A stretch of 27,969 nucleotides of DNA, from positions 1-27,969 of the IMG/VR virus record IMGVR_UViG_3300042335_000320; one strand, 5' to 3'. A program made the translations under genes and the position numbers. Within the stretch, counting starts at the first letter, position 1. Each line of letters opens with the position of its first letter. The DNA is from a virus. Lineage: Duplodnaviria > Caudoviricetes. The notes under the pieces are model-generated. The model saw only the letters and a program-made list of their open reading frames with translations. It was not told the origin of the DNA and did not search any database. Positions 1-27,768 of this stretch are shown in pieces.

Positions 1-57
1 ATATAAGGTTTCCGGATCCTCAAAACCGGTATTTTTTAACTCTTTAATAATTGAACC

Positions 58-2100: not shown

Positions 2101-2136
2101 TAACAAATTAAAATATATAACAACAAATTTTATGAT
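2068..2136 (-). ncRNA. putative ~70-nt small RNA
   Basis: Bounded by a consensus minus-strand promoter (2141-2171) and a minus-strand terminator (2068-2100); no ORF. Confidence 0.6.
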
Positions 2137-2203: not shown

Positions 2204-2470
2204 ATGAAACAAACAACTTTAATGATAGTCGCGGCCGGATTGATACTCTTTACCTTTGCGATAATTTATATTGTCCGCTACCAGACATCAGCCGTTCATC
2301 AGATCTTCAAACACCATCGAGAACAACTCGAAAACGAAATTCAAGCCATTAAGTTGGAACGGGAACGACTGAAAAAATCAATTGATAGTCTGGAATACAG
2401 AATAAACCTCGAACAGGAAAACCTAATAATCGACATAGACAACTTCCTAAAAAATCATGGCAAAAGGTAG
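2204..2470 (+). CDS. N-terminally membrane-anchored coiled-coil protein (spanin-like candidate)
   Basis: Hydrophobic LMIVAAGLILFTFAIIYIV followed by an amphipathic helix. Confidence 0.6.
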   Translation: MKQTTLMIVAAGLILFTFAIIYIVRYQTSAVHQIFKHHREQLENEIQAIKLERERLKKSIDSLEYRINLEQENLIIDIDNFLKNHGKR

Positions 2471-2789
2471 TTTAATTTTTATCTTAATTTTGTTCTGTTT
2501 TCGAACAATGGCGCAGTCAGAATTACCGGAATGTTTGAATTTATTACAAAGGTCGAAGGTCATGATTCTGCAACAGGATACACTCATTAAACTGCTCAAA
2601 GACGATGCAAGGCTGATCACTTCCGAAAATATTGTACTTAGAAAACAGTTCGACAATTCCGAAATAACAATGCGATATCTAAACATAGAACTCAAAAAAG
2701 AGAAAACACAAAAAAAGGTCTGGCAGATGATCGGAATTTCAGCACTCACCGGATTATTAACAACATCAATAATTTTAATCACAAAATGA
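2457..2789 (+). CDS. exported coiled-coil protein with C-terminal membrane helix (spanin-like candidate)
   Basis: Signal-like N-terminus with TMA|Q, coiled coil, then KKVWQMIGISALTGLLTTSIILITK. Confidence 0.6.
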   Translation: MAKGSLIFILILFCFRTMAQSELPECLNLLQRSKVMILQQDTLIKLLKDDARLITSENIVLRKQFDNSEITMRYLNIELKKEKTQKKVWQMIGISALTGLLTTSIILITK

Positions 2790-3427
2790 ATTTTGAATTA
2801 CTACAATCGCAACTGATTCAAATATCAAAGCTAAAAAATAATGATGGGCAGATTCCAGACGTACCAAAAAACCCTCGTTTTATTAAAGATACAAGGTTTG
2901 AAAAGTTAGTCAAAAGTTTGCAAGATAACCCAGAAATGTTATCAGCGCGCGAACTATTAGTCTACCAATACGAAAATCAGTTTATTGTCATAGGTGGCAA
3001 CATGAGACTAAGGGCAGCAAAGGAATTAGGATATAAGGAACTGCCATGCAAAGTATTGACAGACCTGACCAGCGAACAGATACGAGCCATTGTCATCAAA
3101 GACAATATTAGTTTTGGCAGCGACGATTGGGAAAGTTTATCTAACGAGTGGGATTCTTTAGAACTGGAAGAATGGGGAATGGAAGTACCTAATTTTGTCA
3201 ATACACTTGAAATAAATCAAATGACAGAAAATGAACTCGATTTTACAGAAGAATTTGACCCAATAGGCGAAAGTAAAGGTTTAGTTAGATTAGTAGTAAT
3301 ATTTGATGGAATGATTGAAGCAAAAGACTGGATTGATAAAAATGTTCCAGAATTAGAATATAAAAAGAAAGGCAATGATGATAACATAATATTACAGGTA
3401 AATTTAGCTACGAATTATGGTATATAA
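2786..3427 (+). CDS. ParB-like nuclease domain protein of the type linked to phage DNA-modification genes
   Basis: NPRFIKDTRFEKLVKSL...VIGGNMRLRAAKELG...IKDN...WD...LEEWG. Confidence 0.88.
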   Translation: MNFELLQSQLIQISKLKNNDGQIPDVPKNPRFIKDTRFEKLVKSLQDNPEMLSARELLVYQYENQFIVIGGNMRLRAAKELGYKELPCKVLTDLTSEQIRAIVIKDNISFGSDDWESLSNEWDSLELEEWGMEVPNFVNTLEINQMTENELDFTEEFDPIGESKGLVRLVVIFDGMIEAKDWIDKNVPELEYKKKGNDDNIILQVNLATNYGI

Positions 3428-4193
3428 ATATCCTATATATATTATAAGTAAAGGCAGATATGAAAAACCATTGACTGCAAAATTATTTGAAAAATGCAAT
3501 ATTGATTATTTAATTGCAGTTGAACCACAAGAATATGACTTGTATGTTAATAAATTAGGAATAGATAAAGTTTTAAAATTACCATTTTCAAATTTAGGTT
3601 TAGGTAGTTATCCTGCTAGAAATTATTGTTGGGAACATGCCAAGTCTAAAGGTTATAAATATCATTGGTTATTTGATGATAATTTTTTGATGTTTAAAAA
3701 ATGGATAAATCAAAAAAGGGTTAGAATTGAAAATATACCAGATGCTATAAAATATGTAGAATTATTTTCAGAAAAGACTAACATAGATATTTTAGGATTT
3801 GAAAGACCAGAATTTTCTTGTAAAGTACCTAAAAAACCATTTAAGTTTAATTGTCATGTTTATTCAGCTATGTTAATAAAAAATGATTTATCTTATCGTT
3901 GGAGATTAAAATATAATGAAGATGTAGATTTGTGTTTACAAGTTTTACATAATAAAGGTACAACTGCAAGTTGTATATATTATTTAGCTAAAAAAGTAGA
4001 TACTGGTCAAAAAATGAAAGGTGGCAATCAAGATGAACTTTACAAAGGCAATGACCCTAAAAAAAAATTGTTAAAAGCAAAAATGTTAGAAGCTGTATGG
4101 CCACAATATGCAAAAACCGTAATTCGATTTAATAGATACCATCATTTTGTAGACTGGAAAGTATTTAAGAAAAATTTAAAACTCAATAAATAA
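3417..4193 (+). CDS. TET-associated glycosyltransferase (TAGT)/GREB1-related GT-A protein
   Basis: YPIYIISKGR, ARNYCWEHA, WLFDDN, YNEDVDLCLQVL and QKMKGGN motifs typical of phage TAGT-like enzymes. Confidence 0.78.
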   Translation: MVYKYPIYIISKGRYEKPLTAKLFEKCNIDYLIAVEPQEYDLYVNKLGIDKVLKLPFSNLGLGSYPARNYCWEHAKSKGYKYHWLFDDNFLMFKKWINQKRVRIENIPDAIKYVELFSEKTNIDILGFERPEFSCKVPKKPFKFNCHVYSAMLIKNDLSYRWRLKYNEDVDLCLQVLHNKGTTASCIYYLAKKVDTGQKMKGGNQDELYKGNDPKKKLLKAKMLEAVWPQYAKTVIRFNRYHHFVDWKVFKKNLKLNK

Positions 4194-16478: not shown

Positions 16479-16504
16479 TTGTTGTTATATCTTTGTAACA
16501 ACAA
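16479..16504 (+). promoter_or_regulatory. promoter -7 box embedded in a perfect inverted repeat (operator candidate), copy 1
   Basis: TTGTTGTTA-TATCTTTG-TAACAACAA. Confidence 0.75.
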
Positions 16505-16544
16505 ATAAGGGAATTAAAATTATAACACACAAAAAATTAAGATT

Positions 16545-16883
16545 ATGAACACGATTAACGAATACGGAAACATTAAAAATGCCAATAAAGCATTATATGC
16601 TATTTCAAAAGGCGGTAAATTTAACGGTATAGTTTATGGCAAAAAACACAATGATTTAAAAACAGATATGACAGTTTATGTATCTGGTGATATTTACCCA
16701 TTAGGAAGAATTTCGCATAAATTTGTAGAAGATTTCAAAGCTGAATTTTTAGCAGCAGTTAATAATACAGAAATTGTTTCTCAACAAAAAACTAACATAT
16801 CAAAACCAACTGCAAAAGTTATTGACGAAAAGAAACAATATTCCACAATGGCTTGGTTAATGGATGGCATGAATTACGAATAA
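16545..16883 (+). CDS. hypothetical protein (first gene of accessory operon)
   Basis: 112-aa ORF with A-rich leader. Confidence 0.75.
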   Translation: MNTINEYGNIKNANKALYAISKGGKFNGIVYGKKHNDLKTDMTVYVSGDIYPLGRISHKFVEDFKAEFLAAVNNTEIVSQQKTNISKPTAKVIDEKKQYSTMAWLMDGMNYE

Positions 16884-16911
16884 AATTTTTAACACTTAAA
16901 ACTATTATCAC

Positions 16912-17094
16912 ATGAAAACTTTAAAATTAATCGGTCAAATTAAAGAAACTTATCTTGGTTTTTTCAGAAGGGTTCAACCAGATGTTGTTCAATGGGTTCC
17001 AAAAGAAGGAAAAATACAGGAACTTACAAACAAGCAAGCGCAAGAAATGTATTCTTACCAAAAGAAAAACGGTTATACAATACCAAACAAATAA
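16912..17094 (+). CDS. hypothetical protein
   Basis: 60 aa, MKT start after an A-rich leader. Confidence 0.7.
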   Translation: MKTLKLIGQIKETYLGFFRRVQPDVVQWVPKEGKIQELTNKQAQEMYSYQKKNGYTIPNK

Positions 17095-17126
17095 ATTTTA
17101 ACAAACTTTTTAACAACAAAAATTTT

Positions 17127-17375
17127 ATGATTATGAGAATGACAATGGAAGGATGGAGAAAGTCGCTCGGTGGCGCTATCAGTTGGAAAATGTTTGACCT
17201 AATGATTGATCCAGATAAGGGTCACCTAAGCAGGTTATCAAAGGAATGGCAAGAAATGGCAGCCGAATTCCAAACAAACTGGCAATATTTAAGTAAAGAG
17301 GAAAAACTTGAATTTATAAGTACGCACCCTCAAAAAAACGACAAACTTTATGTAGACTTTTTAAAAACACTTTAA
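17127..17375 (+). CDS. hypothetical protein
   Basis: Probable start ATG at 17127 (MIMRMTMEGW), after the intergenic A-rich leader; in frame with track ORF 16992..17375. Confidence 0.65.
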   Translation: MIMRMTMEGWRKSLGGAISWKMFDLMIDPDKGHLSRLSKEWQEMAAEFQTNWQYLSKEEKLEFISTHPQKNDKLYVDFLKTL

Positions 17376-17392
17376 CAAACAATCAAATTTTT

Positions 17393-17743
17393 ATGACAAT
17401 GAGAACTTTAATTTTTATTTTTGCAATGCTTTTTTCAGTTTTGGCATTTAGTCAGGAGACTCAAAAAACTGGTTTGTACTATTGTGTTCAGGTGGTTTCG
17501 ACTGAGAATCCAGAACTTTTAAAGCCGGATTATTTTGTAATGATGTACGATAAGCCAATGGTCGAAGAGGCAGTCGTCAAAGGGAAAAAATATTACAGAA
17601 TTATATTCATTTATGAATCAGTTGACGATCAGGATTCCGCTTTACACAATTGGCAGTTCCAATGGGGCAAAGCGTTTAGAGTGACTCGCACAAAGGAACA
17701 GATTGAAAAAATGTACCTATTATTTAAAGACGAAAAAATTTAA
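17393..17743 (+). CDS. secreted SPOR-like (peptidoglycan-binding) domain protein
   Basis: Signal peptide ending AFS|Q; YYCVQVVS...GKKYYRIIF...KAFRV resembles the SPOR strand pattern. Confidence 0.58.
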   Translation: MTMRTLIFIFAMLFSVLAFSQETQKTGLYYCVQVVSTENPELLKPDYFVMMYDKPMVEEAVVKGKKYYRIIFIYESVDDQDSALHNWQFQWGKAFRVTRTKEQIEKMYLLFKDEKI

Positions 17744-17745
17744 CT

Positions 17746-17823
17746 ATGACCTTATTACTTATTATCGCTTTTATTTGTATCTTGATAGGACTTATAATGG
17801 CCACAACAGAACAACCGAAATGA
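17746..17823 (+). CDS. 25-aa membrane micro-protein
   Basis: MTLLLIIAFICILIGLIMATTEQPK; starts 2 nt after the previous stop; ATGA overlap with the next ORF; not in the ORF track. Confidence 0.55.
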   Translation: MTLLLIIAFICILIGLIMATTEQPK

Positions 17824-17918
17824 TAAGATTTTTTTTAGTCTTAATAATCGTTTTAATAACCGCCGGCGCTTTTGTTTCTTTGCATAACTACAAAAGGAAA
17901 TATAAACGCCGAAGATAG
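17820..17918 (+). CDS. 32-aa membrane micro-protein with basic tail
   Basis: MIRFFLVLIIVLITAGAFVSLHNYKRKYKRRR, from the ATG at 17820. Confidence 0.6.
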   Translation: MIRFFLVLIIVLITAGAFVSLHNYKRKYKRRR

Positions 17919-17947
17919 TTTTCATTTTTTTGTTTTCCATAAGTGTT

Positions 17948-17979
17948 GACCTCTTACCACTCCGGTAAGGGGTTTTTTT
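17948..17979 (+). terminator. intrinsic terminator closing the accessory operon
   Basis: ACCTCTTACC-actcc-GGTAAGGGGT followed by a T run. Confidence 0.85.
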
Positions 17980-17998
17980 ATTTCGTTATTTTTTGGAA

Positions 17999-20990: not shown

Positions 20991-21524
20991 ATGAGTTGCT
21001 TAAGCACAGGATATAGTGTTGACTGTTCTCTCAGTTGCGCCGGCGGTTTAAATCGTTTTTGGCTTGCAAGCGTGGGCGATATTGCTTCGCTTACTTTTGT
21101 ATCTGGAGAATTGACAGTCATTACAATGACAGGTATTACAAAATTTTATGAAATTGTCCCATATCAAGAAACAGGAAGTTTTGTTGAAACAGGCGAGCGC
21201 GTAAACTGTAACACAGTAGTAACGCAGACCGTTACCGGCGTTTTTCCTTGCCATAATCAAGATGTGAAGGAATTGATTGATGATTTGAAAAATTGTTGCT
21301 GCGGTTTTGTTGTTATTCATGAGGAAAACAATGGAAGTAGATGGATTTGGGGCGTTCCTCAAAGTTTAACATCTGCAGGTGTTCAATTTCCGGCTCAGTT
21401 GACTGCATTCGAAACTACAACCGGAACGGCTATCAATGACCAAAATCAGGCGAGCGTGACATTAGTAAGTCGCGGAACTACTTTGGCCTATCCGGTAGAT
21501 CCAGCGGTTGTTATACCGGTATAA
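20991..21524 (+). CDS. major tail tube protein
   Basis: MSC.L..G...DC....GG start and VVIHEENNGSRWIWG; 177 aa, directly after MCP. Confidence 0.72.
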   Translation: MSCLSTGYSVDCSLSCAGGLNRFWLASVGDIASLTFVSGELTVITMTGITKFYEIVPYQETGSFVETGERVNCNTVVTQTVTGVFPCHNQDVKELIDDLKNCCCGFVVIHEENNGSRWIWGVPQSLTSAGVQFPAQLTAFETTTGTAINDQNQASVTLVSRGTTLAYPVDPAVVIPV

Positions 21525-21547
21525 ATTTTGATTAGAAAAAGTGTTTT

Positions 21548-21584
21548 AAAGGGGGTTGTATTTAATTATGCAACCCTTTTTTTA
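21548..21584 (+). terminator. intrinsic terminator
   Basis: GGGTTGTA/TGCAACCC stem followed by T8. Confidence 0.82.
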
Positions 21585-25367: not shown

Positions 25368-26158
25368 TTATAAATTCTTATGTTTTCGGATTGGATCCAG
25401 ACGCGCAGGCGTTTTTGACTGCCACAGGAATAACGGACGCGACTATATCAGGCGCGATAAATACCTTAGTTTTAGATTTAAAAGGTTTTAATCTATGGTC
25501 TAAAATGTACGCTGTTTACCCTTTTGTAGGTGGTACAAGTGCTACACATAAATATAATTTAAAGACTCCAGCCGATACAGACTCGGCTTATAGGTTGGTA
25601 TTTAATGGAGGTTGGACGCATAGCAGCACGGGTATATTAGGTAATGGCGTTAATTCATACGCAGACACAAAATTCCCGATGAATGGATTACCTCAGGATA
25701 ATTCGCACCTATCTATATATTGCCGTACAAATACAACTGCCAATATAATAGATTATGGCGTTCAATTTACTTCAATTTCATATAGTAGTTTTATCTCATG
25801 TAAGTTATCCGGCAATTTTAACAGTAGGTTAAATACAAGCGGATTTACAGACGGTTTAACGGCAAACACAGATTCAAGAGGTCAGTTTATAAGTTCACGT
25901 TCAGACGCCATTAAGATAACAACCAGAAAAAATAATAACGCCGCGACAAATTTCACGCAGGCGTCCACTACGGCAGGCGCAAATGTACTTCCTATTTTTT
26001 TAGGCAACTTAAATTTTAATGGAACGCCTTTGAGCGGTTACTATTCAAATAGGGAATATGCTTTTGCCACTATTGGAACGGCATTCAACACAACTGAAAG
26101 CGGCGACTTATATACTGCTATACAGACATTTCAAACCACTTTAGGAAGACAAGTTTAA
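25364..26158 (+). CDS. virion protein, lectin/LamG-like candidate
   Basis: DPDAQAFLTATGI...AVYPFVGG...QTFQTTLGRQV, a family recalled from freshwater Bacteroidota phages. Confidence 0.62.
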   Translation: MIINSYVFGLDPDAQAFLTATGITDATISGAINTLVLDLKGFNLWSKMYAVYPFVGGTSATHKYNLKTPADTDSAYRLVFNGGWTHSSTGILGNGVNSYADTKFPMNGLPQDNSHLSIYCRTNTTANIIDYGVQFTSISYSSFISCKLSGNFNSRLNTSGFTDGLTANTDSRGQFISSRSDAIKITTRKNNNAATNFTQASTTAGANVLPIFLGNLNFNGTPLSGYYSNREYAFATIGTAFNTTESGDLYTAIQTFQTTLGRQV

Positions 26159-26784
26159 TGAAACACTTTCAACAGATATTAAAAGATAGGGGATATTATT
26201 CCGGAGCCATTGATGGTATAATTGGCTCATTAAGTTTGACCGGAGCAAAACGTTTTATAAATGACGAATTATTCAAAAGAGATTGGAAACAACCGAAAAC
26301 GGAATTAGTCTGGTTGCGCTTAAATAAAACTTTTGATAATCGTTTTTCTGATATTTGTTTACGTTTCAATAATGGTATAGTTGATCTTATTTTGCCATGT
26401 TCAACGCGTCCGGGTAATTATTGGATATATAATCCGGTAACGACCGGAGGCATCACAGGAACGGCCATTGCGCGCGAACAACAAGTAATAAACAGTCATA
26501 CTTTTATTACTTCCGCAAATTGGAAATCTTTATGGCTCGGCGCTCCTTACTTTATGCAAACAGGCGCGATTGGAATTTATCGAGACGGAAATAAAGATAA
26601 TAATATTGATAAAAACATAAACACAAATGGTTTTTATGGAATAAACTTCCATAGGGGCGGCATAGGTTCAGCGGTCGATAATTGGTCAGCCGGTTGTATG
26701 GTGGTGCCAGATTCAAGATGGTTCGAGGCTATCAAAGTTTTTAAACATAATCAATTAACTAACTTTACACTTTTGGAAATATGA
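26158..26784 (+). CDS. putative endolysin: short PG-binding motif plus YkuD/L,D-transpeptidase-like His-Cys domain
   Basis: QQILKDRGYYSGAIDGIIG; GINFHRGG...NWSAGCMVV. Confidence 0.72.
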   Translation: MKHFQQILKDRGYYSGAIDGIIGSLSLTGAKRFINDELFKRDWKQPKTELVWLRLNKTFDNRFSDICLRFNNGIVDLILPCSTRPGNYWIYNPVTTGGITGTAIAREQQVINSHTFITSANWKSLWLGAPYFMQTGAIGIYRDGNKDNNIDKNINTNGFYGINFHRGGIGSAVDNWSAGCMVVPDSRWFEAIKVFKHNQLTNFTLLEI

Positions 26785-27381: not shown

Positions 27382-27438
27382 GTAAAAAAGTAAAAATATT
27401 TTAATCAAAAGTGAAAATAAATTTTTTTATGTCAATAT

Positions 27439-27460
27439 GTTGTTATATATTTGTAACAAC
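27439..27460 (+). promoter_or_regulatory. promoter -7 box embedded in a perfect inverted repeat (operator candidate), copy 2
   Basis: GTTGTTA-TATATTTG-TAACAAC; 21 of 22 nt identical to 16481-16502. Confidence 0.78.
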
Positions 27461-27489
27461 TTATTAAATAACAATTAAAAATTATTACA

Positions 27490-27768
27490 ATGAAAACAAA
27501 TTATGTTTGGATTAGACGCAATCACGCACCATGTGATATTTTCGAGGAAAGTACACACAAAAGAAATGAAAGAATCAAAAACTACAATGATTGGTTTTTA
27601 GCTATTCAATTGGACGAAAACTTTTATCAGTCATTTAGTGGAAATCAGTTCTGGGTTCAAAAAATTGAGGTTAGTACGGAGGTAGTTACAAGACCTTACA
27701 ATAATGACGAACTTCACGAACTTTACGAACAGGAAGACGAACTTAAAAAGATTTTTTCAATACTTTAA
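27490..27768 (+). CDS. hypothetical early protein
   Basis: 92 aa, MKT start, first gene after the promoter. Confidence 0.75.
   Translation: MKTNYVWIRRNHAPCDIFEESTHKRNERIKNYNDWFLAIQLDENFYQSFSGNQFWVQKIEVSTEVVTRPYNNDELHELYEQEDELKKIFSIL

Follow-up and report, generated by a model that had tools for sequence, protein, structure and literature searches.

The window, by which we mean the whole 27,969-base stretch of DNA analysed here (contig IMGVR_UViG_3300042335_000320), encodes a Gam-like protein, ParB-like proteins, a terminase, a tape measure, a Clp-type head protease and a portal. Its operons are preceded by boxes of the form TAnnTTTG, the Bacteroidota sigma-A element at positions -12 to -5 (PMC9723704), and sigma-70 promoter scans of the window gave matches at chance level. 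Of its relatives, one belongs to a Bacteroidia MAG and one to a bin that carries the name Methylococcus; the host of the window phage is probably a member of the Bacteroidota. Compared with phage records, the capsid gave one weak match, to Bacteroides phage BS-TP3 (19.5%). The relatives used below are G001-G003, about 90% identical to the window (G002 is 96% and G003 98% complete); G002-G004, which at about 90% identity are not independent of it; G024, a 16.7-kb fragment with 95% capsid identity; and a sister clade with 67-69% capsid identity. Gene starts in these relatives were assigned heuristically. Four DNA runs of lake data were also read for differences around a minus-strand unit at 2136-2066, hereafter the 2136 unit.

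Two promoters of the plus strand share an architecture. In the first, at 16481-16502, the -7 box (16488-16495; predicted +1 at 16500) lies within a 7-bp inverted repeat, and this repeat recurs at 27439-27460 around the box 27446-27453 of the second, which together with the leader of gene 27490 spans 27439-27492. Such promoters occur in three to four copies per near-complete genome (G002, G003), and we infer that they are early promoters; the repeat itself is a possible operator or activator site. A repeated hairpin with a T tract is also found just 5' of several early-gene leaders (window 1-40; L013:1230-1275; L010:15060-15105; G005) and is possibly a processing, attenuation or cassette-shuffling element. 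A different -7 box, at 2182-2189 on the plus strand, heads the terminase/tail operon and presumably marks a late promoter. Between 2200 and 16480 our scan gave no intergenic plus-strand terminator, the one match lying inside ORF 7492, so that late read-through into the region behind the 16481-16502 promoter is plausible. The ParB-like gene 1172 (1172-1981) is missing from G002-G004, and a pair comprising a ParB-like and a TET-associated glycosyltransferase gene (2786-4193) is missing from G002 and G004; both loci look like mobile insertions, and two RNA units lie between them.

The region that follows the 16481-16502 promoter is a variable island (16545-17918, plus strand). The original prediction described it as a promoter-to-terminator stretch placed between the tail and head modules, and this description holds: it runs from the TAnnTTTG-type promoter at 16488-16495 to a terminator stem at 17948-17974 and has the tape-measure region on one side and the Clp-type head protease on the other. 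It comprises six ORFs, not three (16545-16883, 16912-17094, 17127-17375, 17393-17743, 17746-17823 and 17820-17918), and none of the four larger ones could be assigned to a Pfam or PHROG family at E<=0.001. The last two overlap and encode small hydrophobic peptides of 25 and 32 aa, in place of which relatives L066 and L067 carry a single 36-aa peptide. A minus-strand ORF at 17940-17755 was rejected as a gene, being interrupted by a stop in all three relatives examined. Among the assembled relatives, on which our view of island variation is based, the position of the island is constant and its gene content variable: genes 16545, 16912 and 17127 are missing from G001-G003, where 16912 and 17127 give no tblastn match. 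Homologs of gene 16545 occur elsewhere, at 72% in the Bacteroidia-MAG relative and at 38% in another virus contig (L055:8883-9239 reverse strand; L066:8225-8560); the contig of the 38% homolog has no other window gene, yet it has similar promoters and repeated leader tags. The island leaders belong to a common motif family rather than being unique addresses, the motif occurring three times in L066.

It had been proposed that three consecutive island genes, 16912, 17127 and 17393, are each silenced by a complementary segment located just 5' of a different intrinsic terminator, at 17917-17947, 2136-2101 (minus strand) and 21521-21547, respectively. The complementary blocks are indeed present at these sites: 8+9 nt for 16912 (16891-16898 and 16912-16920, within 16891-16920), 10+12 nt for 17127, and 10 nt plus a 7-nt block for 17393 (within 17364-17394). 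When each segment was compared with 40 leaders and 300 dinucleotide shuffles, two of the claimed partners came first, 17127 at -18.0 kcal/mol (pair P 0.010) and 17393 at -14.6 kcal/mol (pair P 0.013), and 16912 came fifth at -14.5 kcal/mol (pair P 0.030); taken singly, none of them withstands a best-of-40 correction, with P values of 0.10, 0.43 and 0.91 for 17127, 17393 and 16912. If the segments are trimmed as in the original prediction, with boundaries fixed post hoc, the best z values place the three genes at ranks 2, 4 and 8 of 40. Of 2000 draws of shuffled sets, 1.4% contained some consecutive triple of equal quality, which puts the three matches jointly beyond a plain shuffle null (joint P about 0.014). 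For none of the three segments does the longest uninterrupted complement in the window exceed chance, 174, 165 and 247 of 300 shuffles being equally long; for the 2136 segment this is a perfect run of 13 bp (174 of 300). Leaders of distant relatives, which retain real leader composition, provide a harsher null than shuffles: the best leader of six such relatives paired at least as well as the claimed partner in 6/6 cases for 17917-47 and in 2/6 each for 21521-47 and 2136-2101.

If separate segments guided separate genes, segment and leader should change together between relatives, and for two of the pairs they do not. The 17917-47 segment is kept in all three relatives (31/31, 28/31 and 31/31) though gene 16912 is absent. 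For 21521-47, the leader of the 17393 homologs differs and lacks the 10-nt block, and the segment is barely changed, pairing with those leaders at -11.5, -7.7 and -13.5 (27, 83 and 12 of 300 shuffles as good). A 3' UTR-derived sRNA would be expected to keep its pairing with its target, and for these two segments the pairing with the claimed targets is not conserved. Neither has an own -7 box within 75 nt or a group preference for early leaders (39-173 of 400 shuffles), and their settings are those of a U/G-rich 3' UTR with the island terminator (17917-17981, plus strand; UTR 17917-17947, stem 17948-17974) and of the 3' end/UTR of gene 20991 with an ordinary terminator (21521-21584, plus strand; stem 21552-21578). 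The 17917-47 segment has a better partner in gene 26158 than in 16912, and its 8-mer enrichment is equally strong in foreign genomes. The match to the 26158 leader (26123-26168) is the strongest pair in the window (-23.1; best-of-40 P 0.03; -15.5 to -20.7 in relatives), but it was set aside because energies of -20.6 and -22.0 are attained with foreign leaders and changes in the 26158 leader are not compensated; it is probably a chance match. Gene 26158 itself has a weak peptidoglycan-binding Pfam match (E 0.014). Neither 16912 nor 17393 is supported as a specific target, and their pairs are best explained as U/G-rich 3' UTRs meeting an A/C-rich leader family. The notion of a gene-by-gene guide set finds no support, given the missing co-change of these two pairs, the lack of promoters and the shared leader motifs. 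What survives is the more general notion that an antisense segment before a terminator may be directed at early leaders, and it does so for 2136-2101 only, not for 17917-47 or 21521-47, and in a one-to-many form.

Among the three segments, only the 2136 unit consists of a short non-coding stretch with its own promoter and its own intrinsic terminator. Its -7 box (TAnnTTTG, Bacteroidota sigma-A type) lies at 2141-2148 on the minus strand, is kept in G002, G003 and G004, and predicts a +1 at 2136, which is the segment boundary given in the original prediction. The first 36 nt of the candidate sRNA (2101-2136, minus strand) fold weakly, are complementary to early-gene leaders and are followed by a terminator at 2066-2100 with an 11-bp stem (2075-2100) and a U tract. 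The promoter stands back-to-back with the 2182 box and is without the inverted repeat typical of early promoters. The unit is intergenic, the opposite strand of 2066-2136 having a 5-codon ORF alone, and its neighbours are the Gam-like gene, the ParB-like genes and the terminase. That the units generally serve to encode a mini-ORF on the opposite strand was rejected, because in the sister clade several units face no ATG. Rfam gave no match at the gathering score in the window and six sub-threshold matches in 1900-2300 (E at least 1.3), none of them c4.

The 36-nt segment is identical at 36/36 positions in all three relatives (G002-G004), a degree of identity shared by 95 of 2725 sampled 36-nt windows. 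No differences are listed within it in any of the four lake runs, and the adjoining stem differs at nine places in one of them. The changes in this stem include compensatory ones at 2080/2095 and 2083/2092 (run X4), with wobble pairs valid on the minus strand only. Other non-coding stretches are mostly 93-100% conserved too, so that the invariance of the 36 nt is by itself moderate evidence. With a predicted opening cost of 2-3 kcal/mol for its pairing region, 2136-2101 has the conserved and accessible pairing region expected of a stand-alone sRNA. A second, convergent unit lies at 1986-2063 on the plus strand (box 1986-1993, predicted +1 at 1998, stem 2025-2055) and shows compensatory stem changes at 2034/2046 and 2036/2044 in three of the four runs; for its predicted transcript (1998-2063) we found no target in the window's clade and no early-leader preference (168 of 400 shuffles).

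A unit of the sister-clade genome G010 matched the first leader of its island (rank 1 of 28, -23.8), which led us to try the 2136 segment on all early-promoter leaders; this leader set is therefore post hoc, and its promoters were picked by eye. The mean pairing of the segment to these leaders was equalled by 6 of 400 shuffles in the window, by none in G002 and G003, and by 9 in G024, as opposed to 252 of 400 for the early leaders of the distant G016. Early leaders rank 2 and 7 of 40 in the window, 7, 3, 13 and 4 of 54 in G002, and 1, 4 and 5 of 59 in G003. Complements of 8-mers of the segment occur in 17/40, 23/54 and 21/59 leaders (P <=0.03), and their enrichment in ten other records reaches P 0.07-0.64. 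The best island target is the leader of gene 16545 (16512-16547, plus strand; core 16512-16533), where the predicted pairing extends to the AUG with a duplex energy of -17.3 and, net of opening, -13.9 kcal/mol; this target was absent from the original prediction, and the homologous leaders rank 7 of 54 in G002 and 1 of 59 in G003. The leader tag of gene 17127 (17111-17131, plus strand) is a further predicted target (rank 1 of 40; net -9.9). In G001-G003, a nearly identical tag stands before the 17393 homolog, where the predicted duplex spans the AUG and has 16-18 bp and a single bulge (0-5 of 300 shuffles as good). The conserved element is the leader tag, not the gene behind it. The leader of gene 27490 is a weaker predicted target in the window (rank 7 of 40, -12.5), its homologs in G002 and G003 reaching -16.5.

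The predicted pairing covers the A-rich region that governs initiation in Flavobacterium, where adenines at -3, -6, -12 and -13 are the drivers (PMC6847099). The duplexes of the window's 2136 segment are bulged and AU-rich, and the segment also pairs with foreign early leaders, ranking 4 and 2 of 30 in G024 and 4 and 10 of 49 in G020, so that its specificity is one-sided.

The only divergent ortholog of the 2136 unit that we found is in G024, where both convergent units occupy the corresponding position with different sequences. With the leader of the 27490 homolog of G024, the G024 minus unit can form 19 consecutive base pairs, one of them G-U, a length that none of 300 shuffles attained, and its longest runs in two foreign genomes are 11 and 13 bp. 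It pairs at -20.6 with its own leader versus -6.4 to -8.4 with the homologous leaders of the window's clade; the window's 2136 unit in turn pairs with 27490-type leaders at -16.5 (G002, G003), -12.5 (window) and -12.2 (G024). As a group, the early leaders of G024 are favoured by the minus unit (6 of 400 shuffles as good, versus 243 of 400 on the early leaders of G002) and also by the plus unit (L168:15861-15930; 3 of 400), and 8-mer complements of the G024 unit are not enriched over all its own leaders (5 of 30, P 0.36). This match of a unit to its own leader is the strongest single result, though it comes from one genome. The homologs of genes 2204/2457 (window 2204-2789) are inverted in G024 (L168:15930-16509) and stand directly behind the minus-unit terminator, which ends 7 nt before the gene start, a layout compatible with a simple attenuator. 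No match to sequence 1980-2210 turned up among 50,697 phage records. Scans with patterns of the unit motifs found solely known relatives or matches without a terminator, and a viral scan for orthologs of the 2136 unit gave five loci, four of them already known, and no new ortholog.

In the sister clade, stand-alone units appear at a different place. Of a redundant set of 49 island-end terminators, 19 have their own box 30-40 nt upstream (e.g. L048:3090-3165); the stand-alone unit of the sister clade is placed at the island end, that of the clade of the window at the late boundary. Three of five sister-clade genomes pass the group test on early leaders (7, 8 and 16 of 400 shuffles) and two fail (109 and 156 of 400). 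The preference for own over foreign leaders is weak (permutation P 0.045, from 15 non-independent pairs, of which 6 reach P<=0.05), in a matrix that leaves out the 17 of 32 loci without an own promoter and in which two units with 22-nt spacing fail. In G010, the complement of the unit's first 14 nt lies in the leader that opens the island (18 of 300 shuffles as good over the whole genome). Since the stand-alone units of the sister clade occupy the position of 17917-47, a guide role for this position is conceivable.

We propose that the 2136-2066 unit encodes, on the minus strand, one multi-target antisense RNA, predicted at 70 bases, that damps the translation of early genes as a group, a proposal that we hold to be somewhat probable. 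The unit would be transcribed into a 70-nt RNA made of 36 free bases and the terminator. This RNA would be made together with the transcript of the back-to-back 2182 promoter of the terminase/tail genes, a late timing suggested by that arrangement and by the lack of the early inverted repeat. The free bases would pair with the leaders of several early genes and hide the A-rich region and the AUG, which Bacteroidota use instead of a Shine-Dalgarno sequence, and translation would fall. Within the island, the targets would be 16545 and 17127, including island genes that are read through late. Transcription, timing, pairing in vivo and repression are all deduced here from sequence; among 24 listed sequencing runs, no RNA run containing the phage was found. 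No integrase, repressor or antirepressor match was found in 39 window proteins and 21 G002 proteins (part of the G002 ORFs), nor any antiterminator among the window and G002 proteins scanned; the lack of an integrase or repressor makes a lytic early shut-off likelier than a role in immunity.

The unit may instead be a by-product, which we regard as a possibility on the unlikely side. Its terminator would then serve as an insulator that stops the minus promoter from running antisense into the early operon, or as an attenuator that gated downstream genes before an inversion, and the 36 nt would descend from an inverted leader copy, leaving a short RNA with no target. Several observations fit such a history: the stretch 2139-2191, which contains the promoter, forms an imperfect palindrome, a leader, an ATG and a 5-codon ORF can be read on the plus strand at 2101-2148, and the G024 unit directly precedes the inverted 2204/2457 homologs. 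In the sister clade, the place of the 2136 unit is taken by a gene on the minus strand whose 3' UTR is U/G-rich, and three UTRs of this type did not favour early leaders (220, 221 and 322 of 400 shuffles). A by-product leaves unexplained, however, why the 36 nt are invariant beside a varying stem, and why units of two different sequences are each matched to the early leaders of their own genome, over 19 consecutive bp in the case of G024. It is improbable that the element acts at the DNA or protein level, either as a decayed copy of an early promoter or operator or as an RNA site for a U/G-binding protein. The minus strand at 2125-2111 reproduces, over 15 nt, the promoter region 27438-27452, but this likeness is due to the inverted repeat, whose second arm is the leader start, and the G024 unit is unlike its own early promoters yet complements its own leaders. 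U/G-rich pre-terminator segments are general in the phage family (T+G of at least 0.6 in 45 of the 49 island-end terminators) and seldom seen in sampled Bacteroidia genomes (2 of 67 at 0.65 or above), although the comparison with hosts is uneven, host terminators being mostly bidirectional with short UTRs.

That separate pre-terminator segments act on 16912, 17127 and 17393 we consider very improbable. All blocks are present, two of the three claimed targets rank first, the joint P for any such triple is 0.014, and the claimed pairs have net energies of about -9 to -10 kcal/mol; these points are outweighed by a 17917-47 guide kept without its target gene and favouring 26158, by a 17393 pair that did not change together, by foreign leaders that pair equally well, by an 8-mer enrichment of 17917-47 that is as strong in foreign genomes, and by two segments that lack a promoter. 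A wider scheme, in which early shut-off is by RNA alone, anti-leader segments at two fixed terminators shift between stand-alone sRNA and 3' UTR, 17917-47 is also a guide and the units divide the early leaders among them, seems doubtful to us, though the two convergent units of G024 appear to share out the leaders in this way (3 and 6 of 400 shuffles). Of the readings considered, the single multi-target antisense RNA is the one that we carry forward. If it is correct, one small RNA would silence a dispersed class of early genes through a shared leader and provide a protein-free switch from early to late expression, in a host group that initiates translation without a Shine-Dalgarno sequence. 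It would also account for island genes that can be swapped while keeping identical leader tags. In the literature we searched, which excludes most subscription papers, we found no description of a multi-target RNA against early leaders in a Bacteroidota phage.

The c4 RNA of phages P1 and P7 is a processed cloverleaf. Encoded at immI, it is a phage antisense RNA needed for repression of the icd-ant operon through binding sites on the mRNA (PMC8198154). The 2136 unit resembles c4 in being a candidate phage-encoded antisense RNA against phage genes, but c4 is encoded in its one target operon in a temperate phage, whereas the 2136 unit stands apart from several dispersed predicted targets. It is also unlike the family of P1/P7 c4 and P4 CI RNA in having no Rfam match and no icd/ant or kil immunity operon. 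Pairing is likewise the means by which sar of P22 (68/69 nt), which blocks translation initiation, and OOP of lambda (77 nt), both of them short RNAs, silence a gene of their phage; OOP and aQ are cis-acting (PMC12197685). These RNAs have one target each, whereas the 2136 unit overlaps no gene and is predicted to pair imperfectly with leaders more than 14 kb away; in particular, 2066-2136 does not overlap a target on the opposite strand as a cis-antisense RNA of the OOP or aQ type would. The sar RNA, too, overlaps its target.

Another parallel in layout is StxS, the short promoter-to-terminator transcript at the late boundary of lambdoid phages (PR'-tR') that gained trans-regulation; it is bound by Hfq, processed by RNase E and targets rpoS and stx1AB (PMC7547250). 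The G024 layout, with a terminator just before a gene, resembles this arrangement. The window unit differs from StxS in that no gene lies downstream of it and its predicted targets are the phage's own early leaders. The phage antisense RNAs described in the literature cited here target either a single gene of the phage or genes of the host; the 2136 unit would instead direct a single RNA at a group of early leaders of the phage that encodes it.
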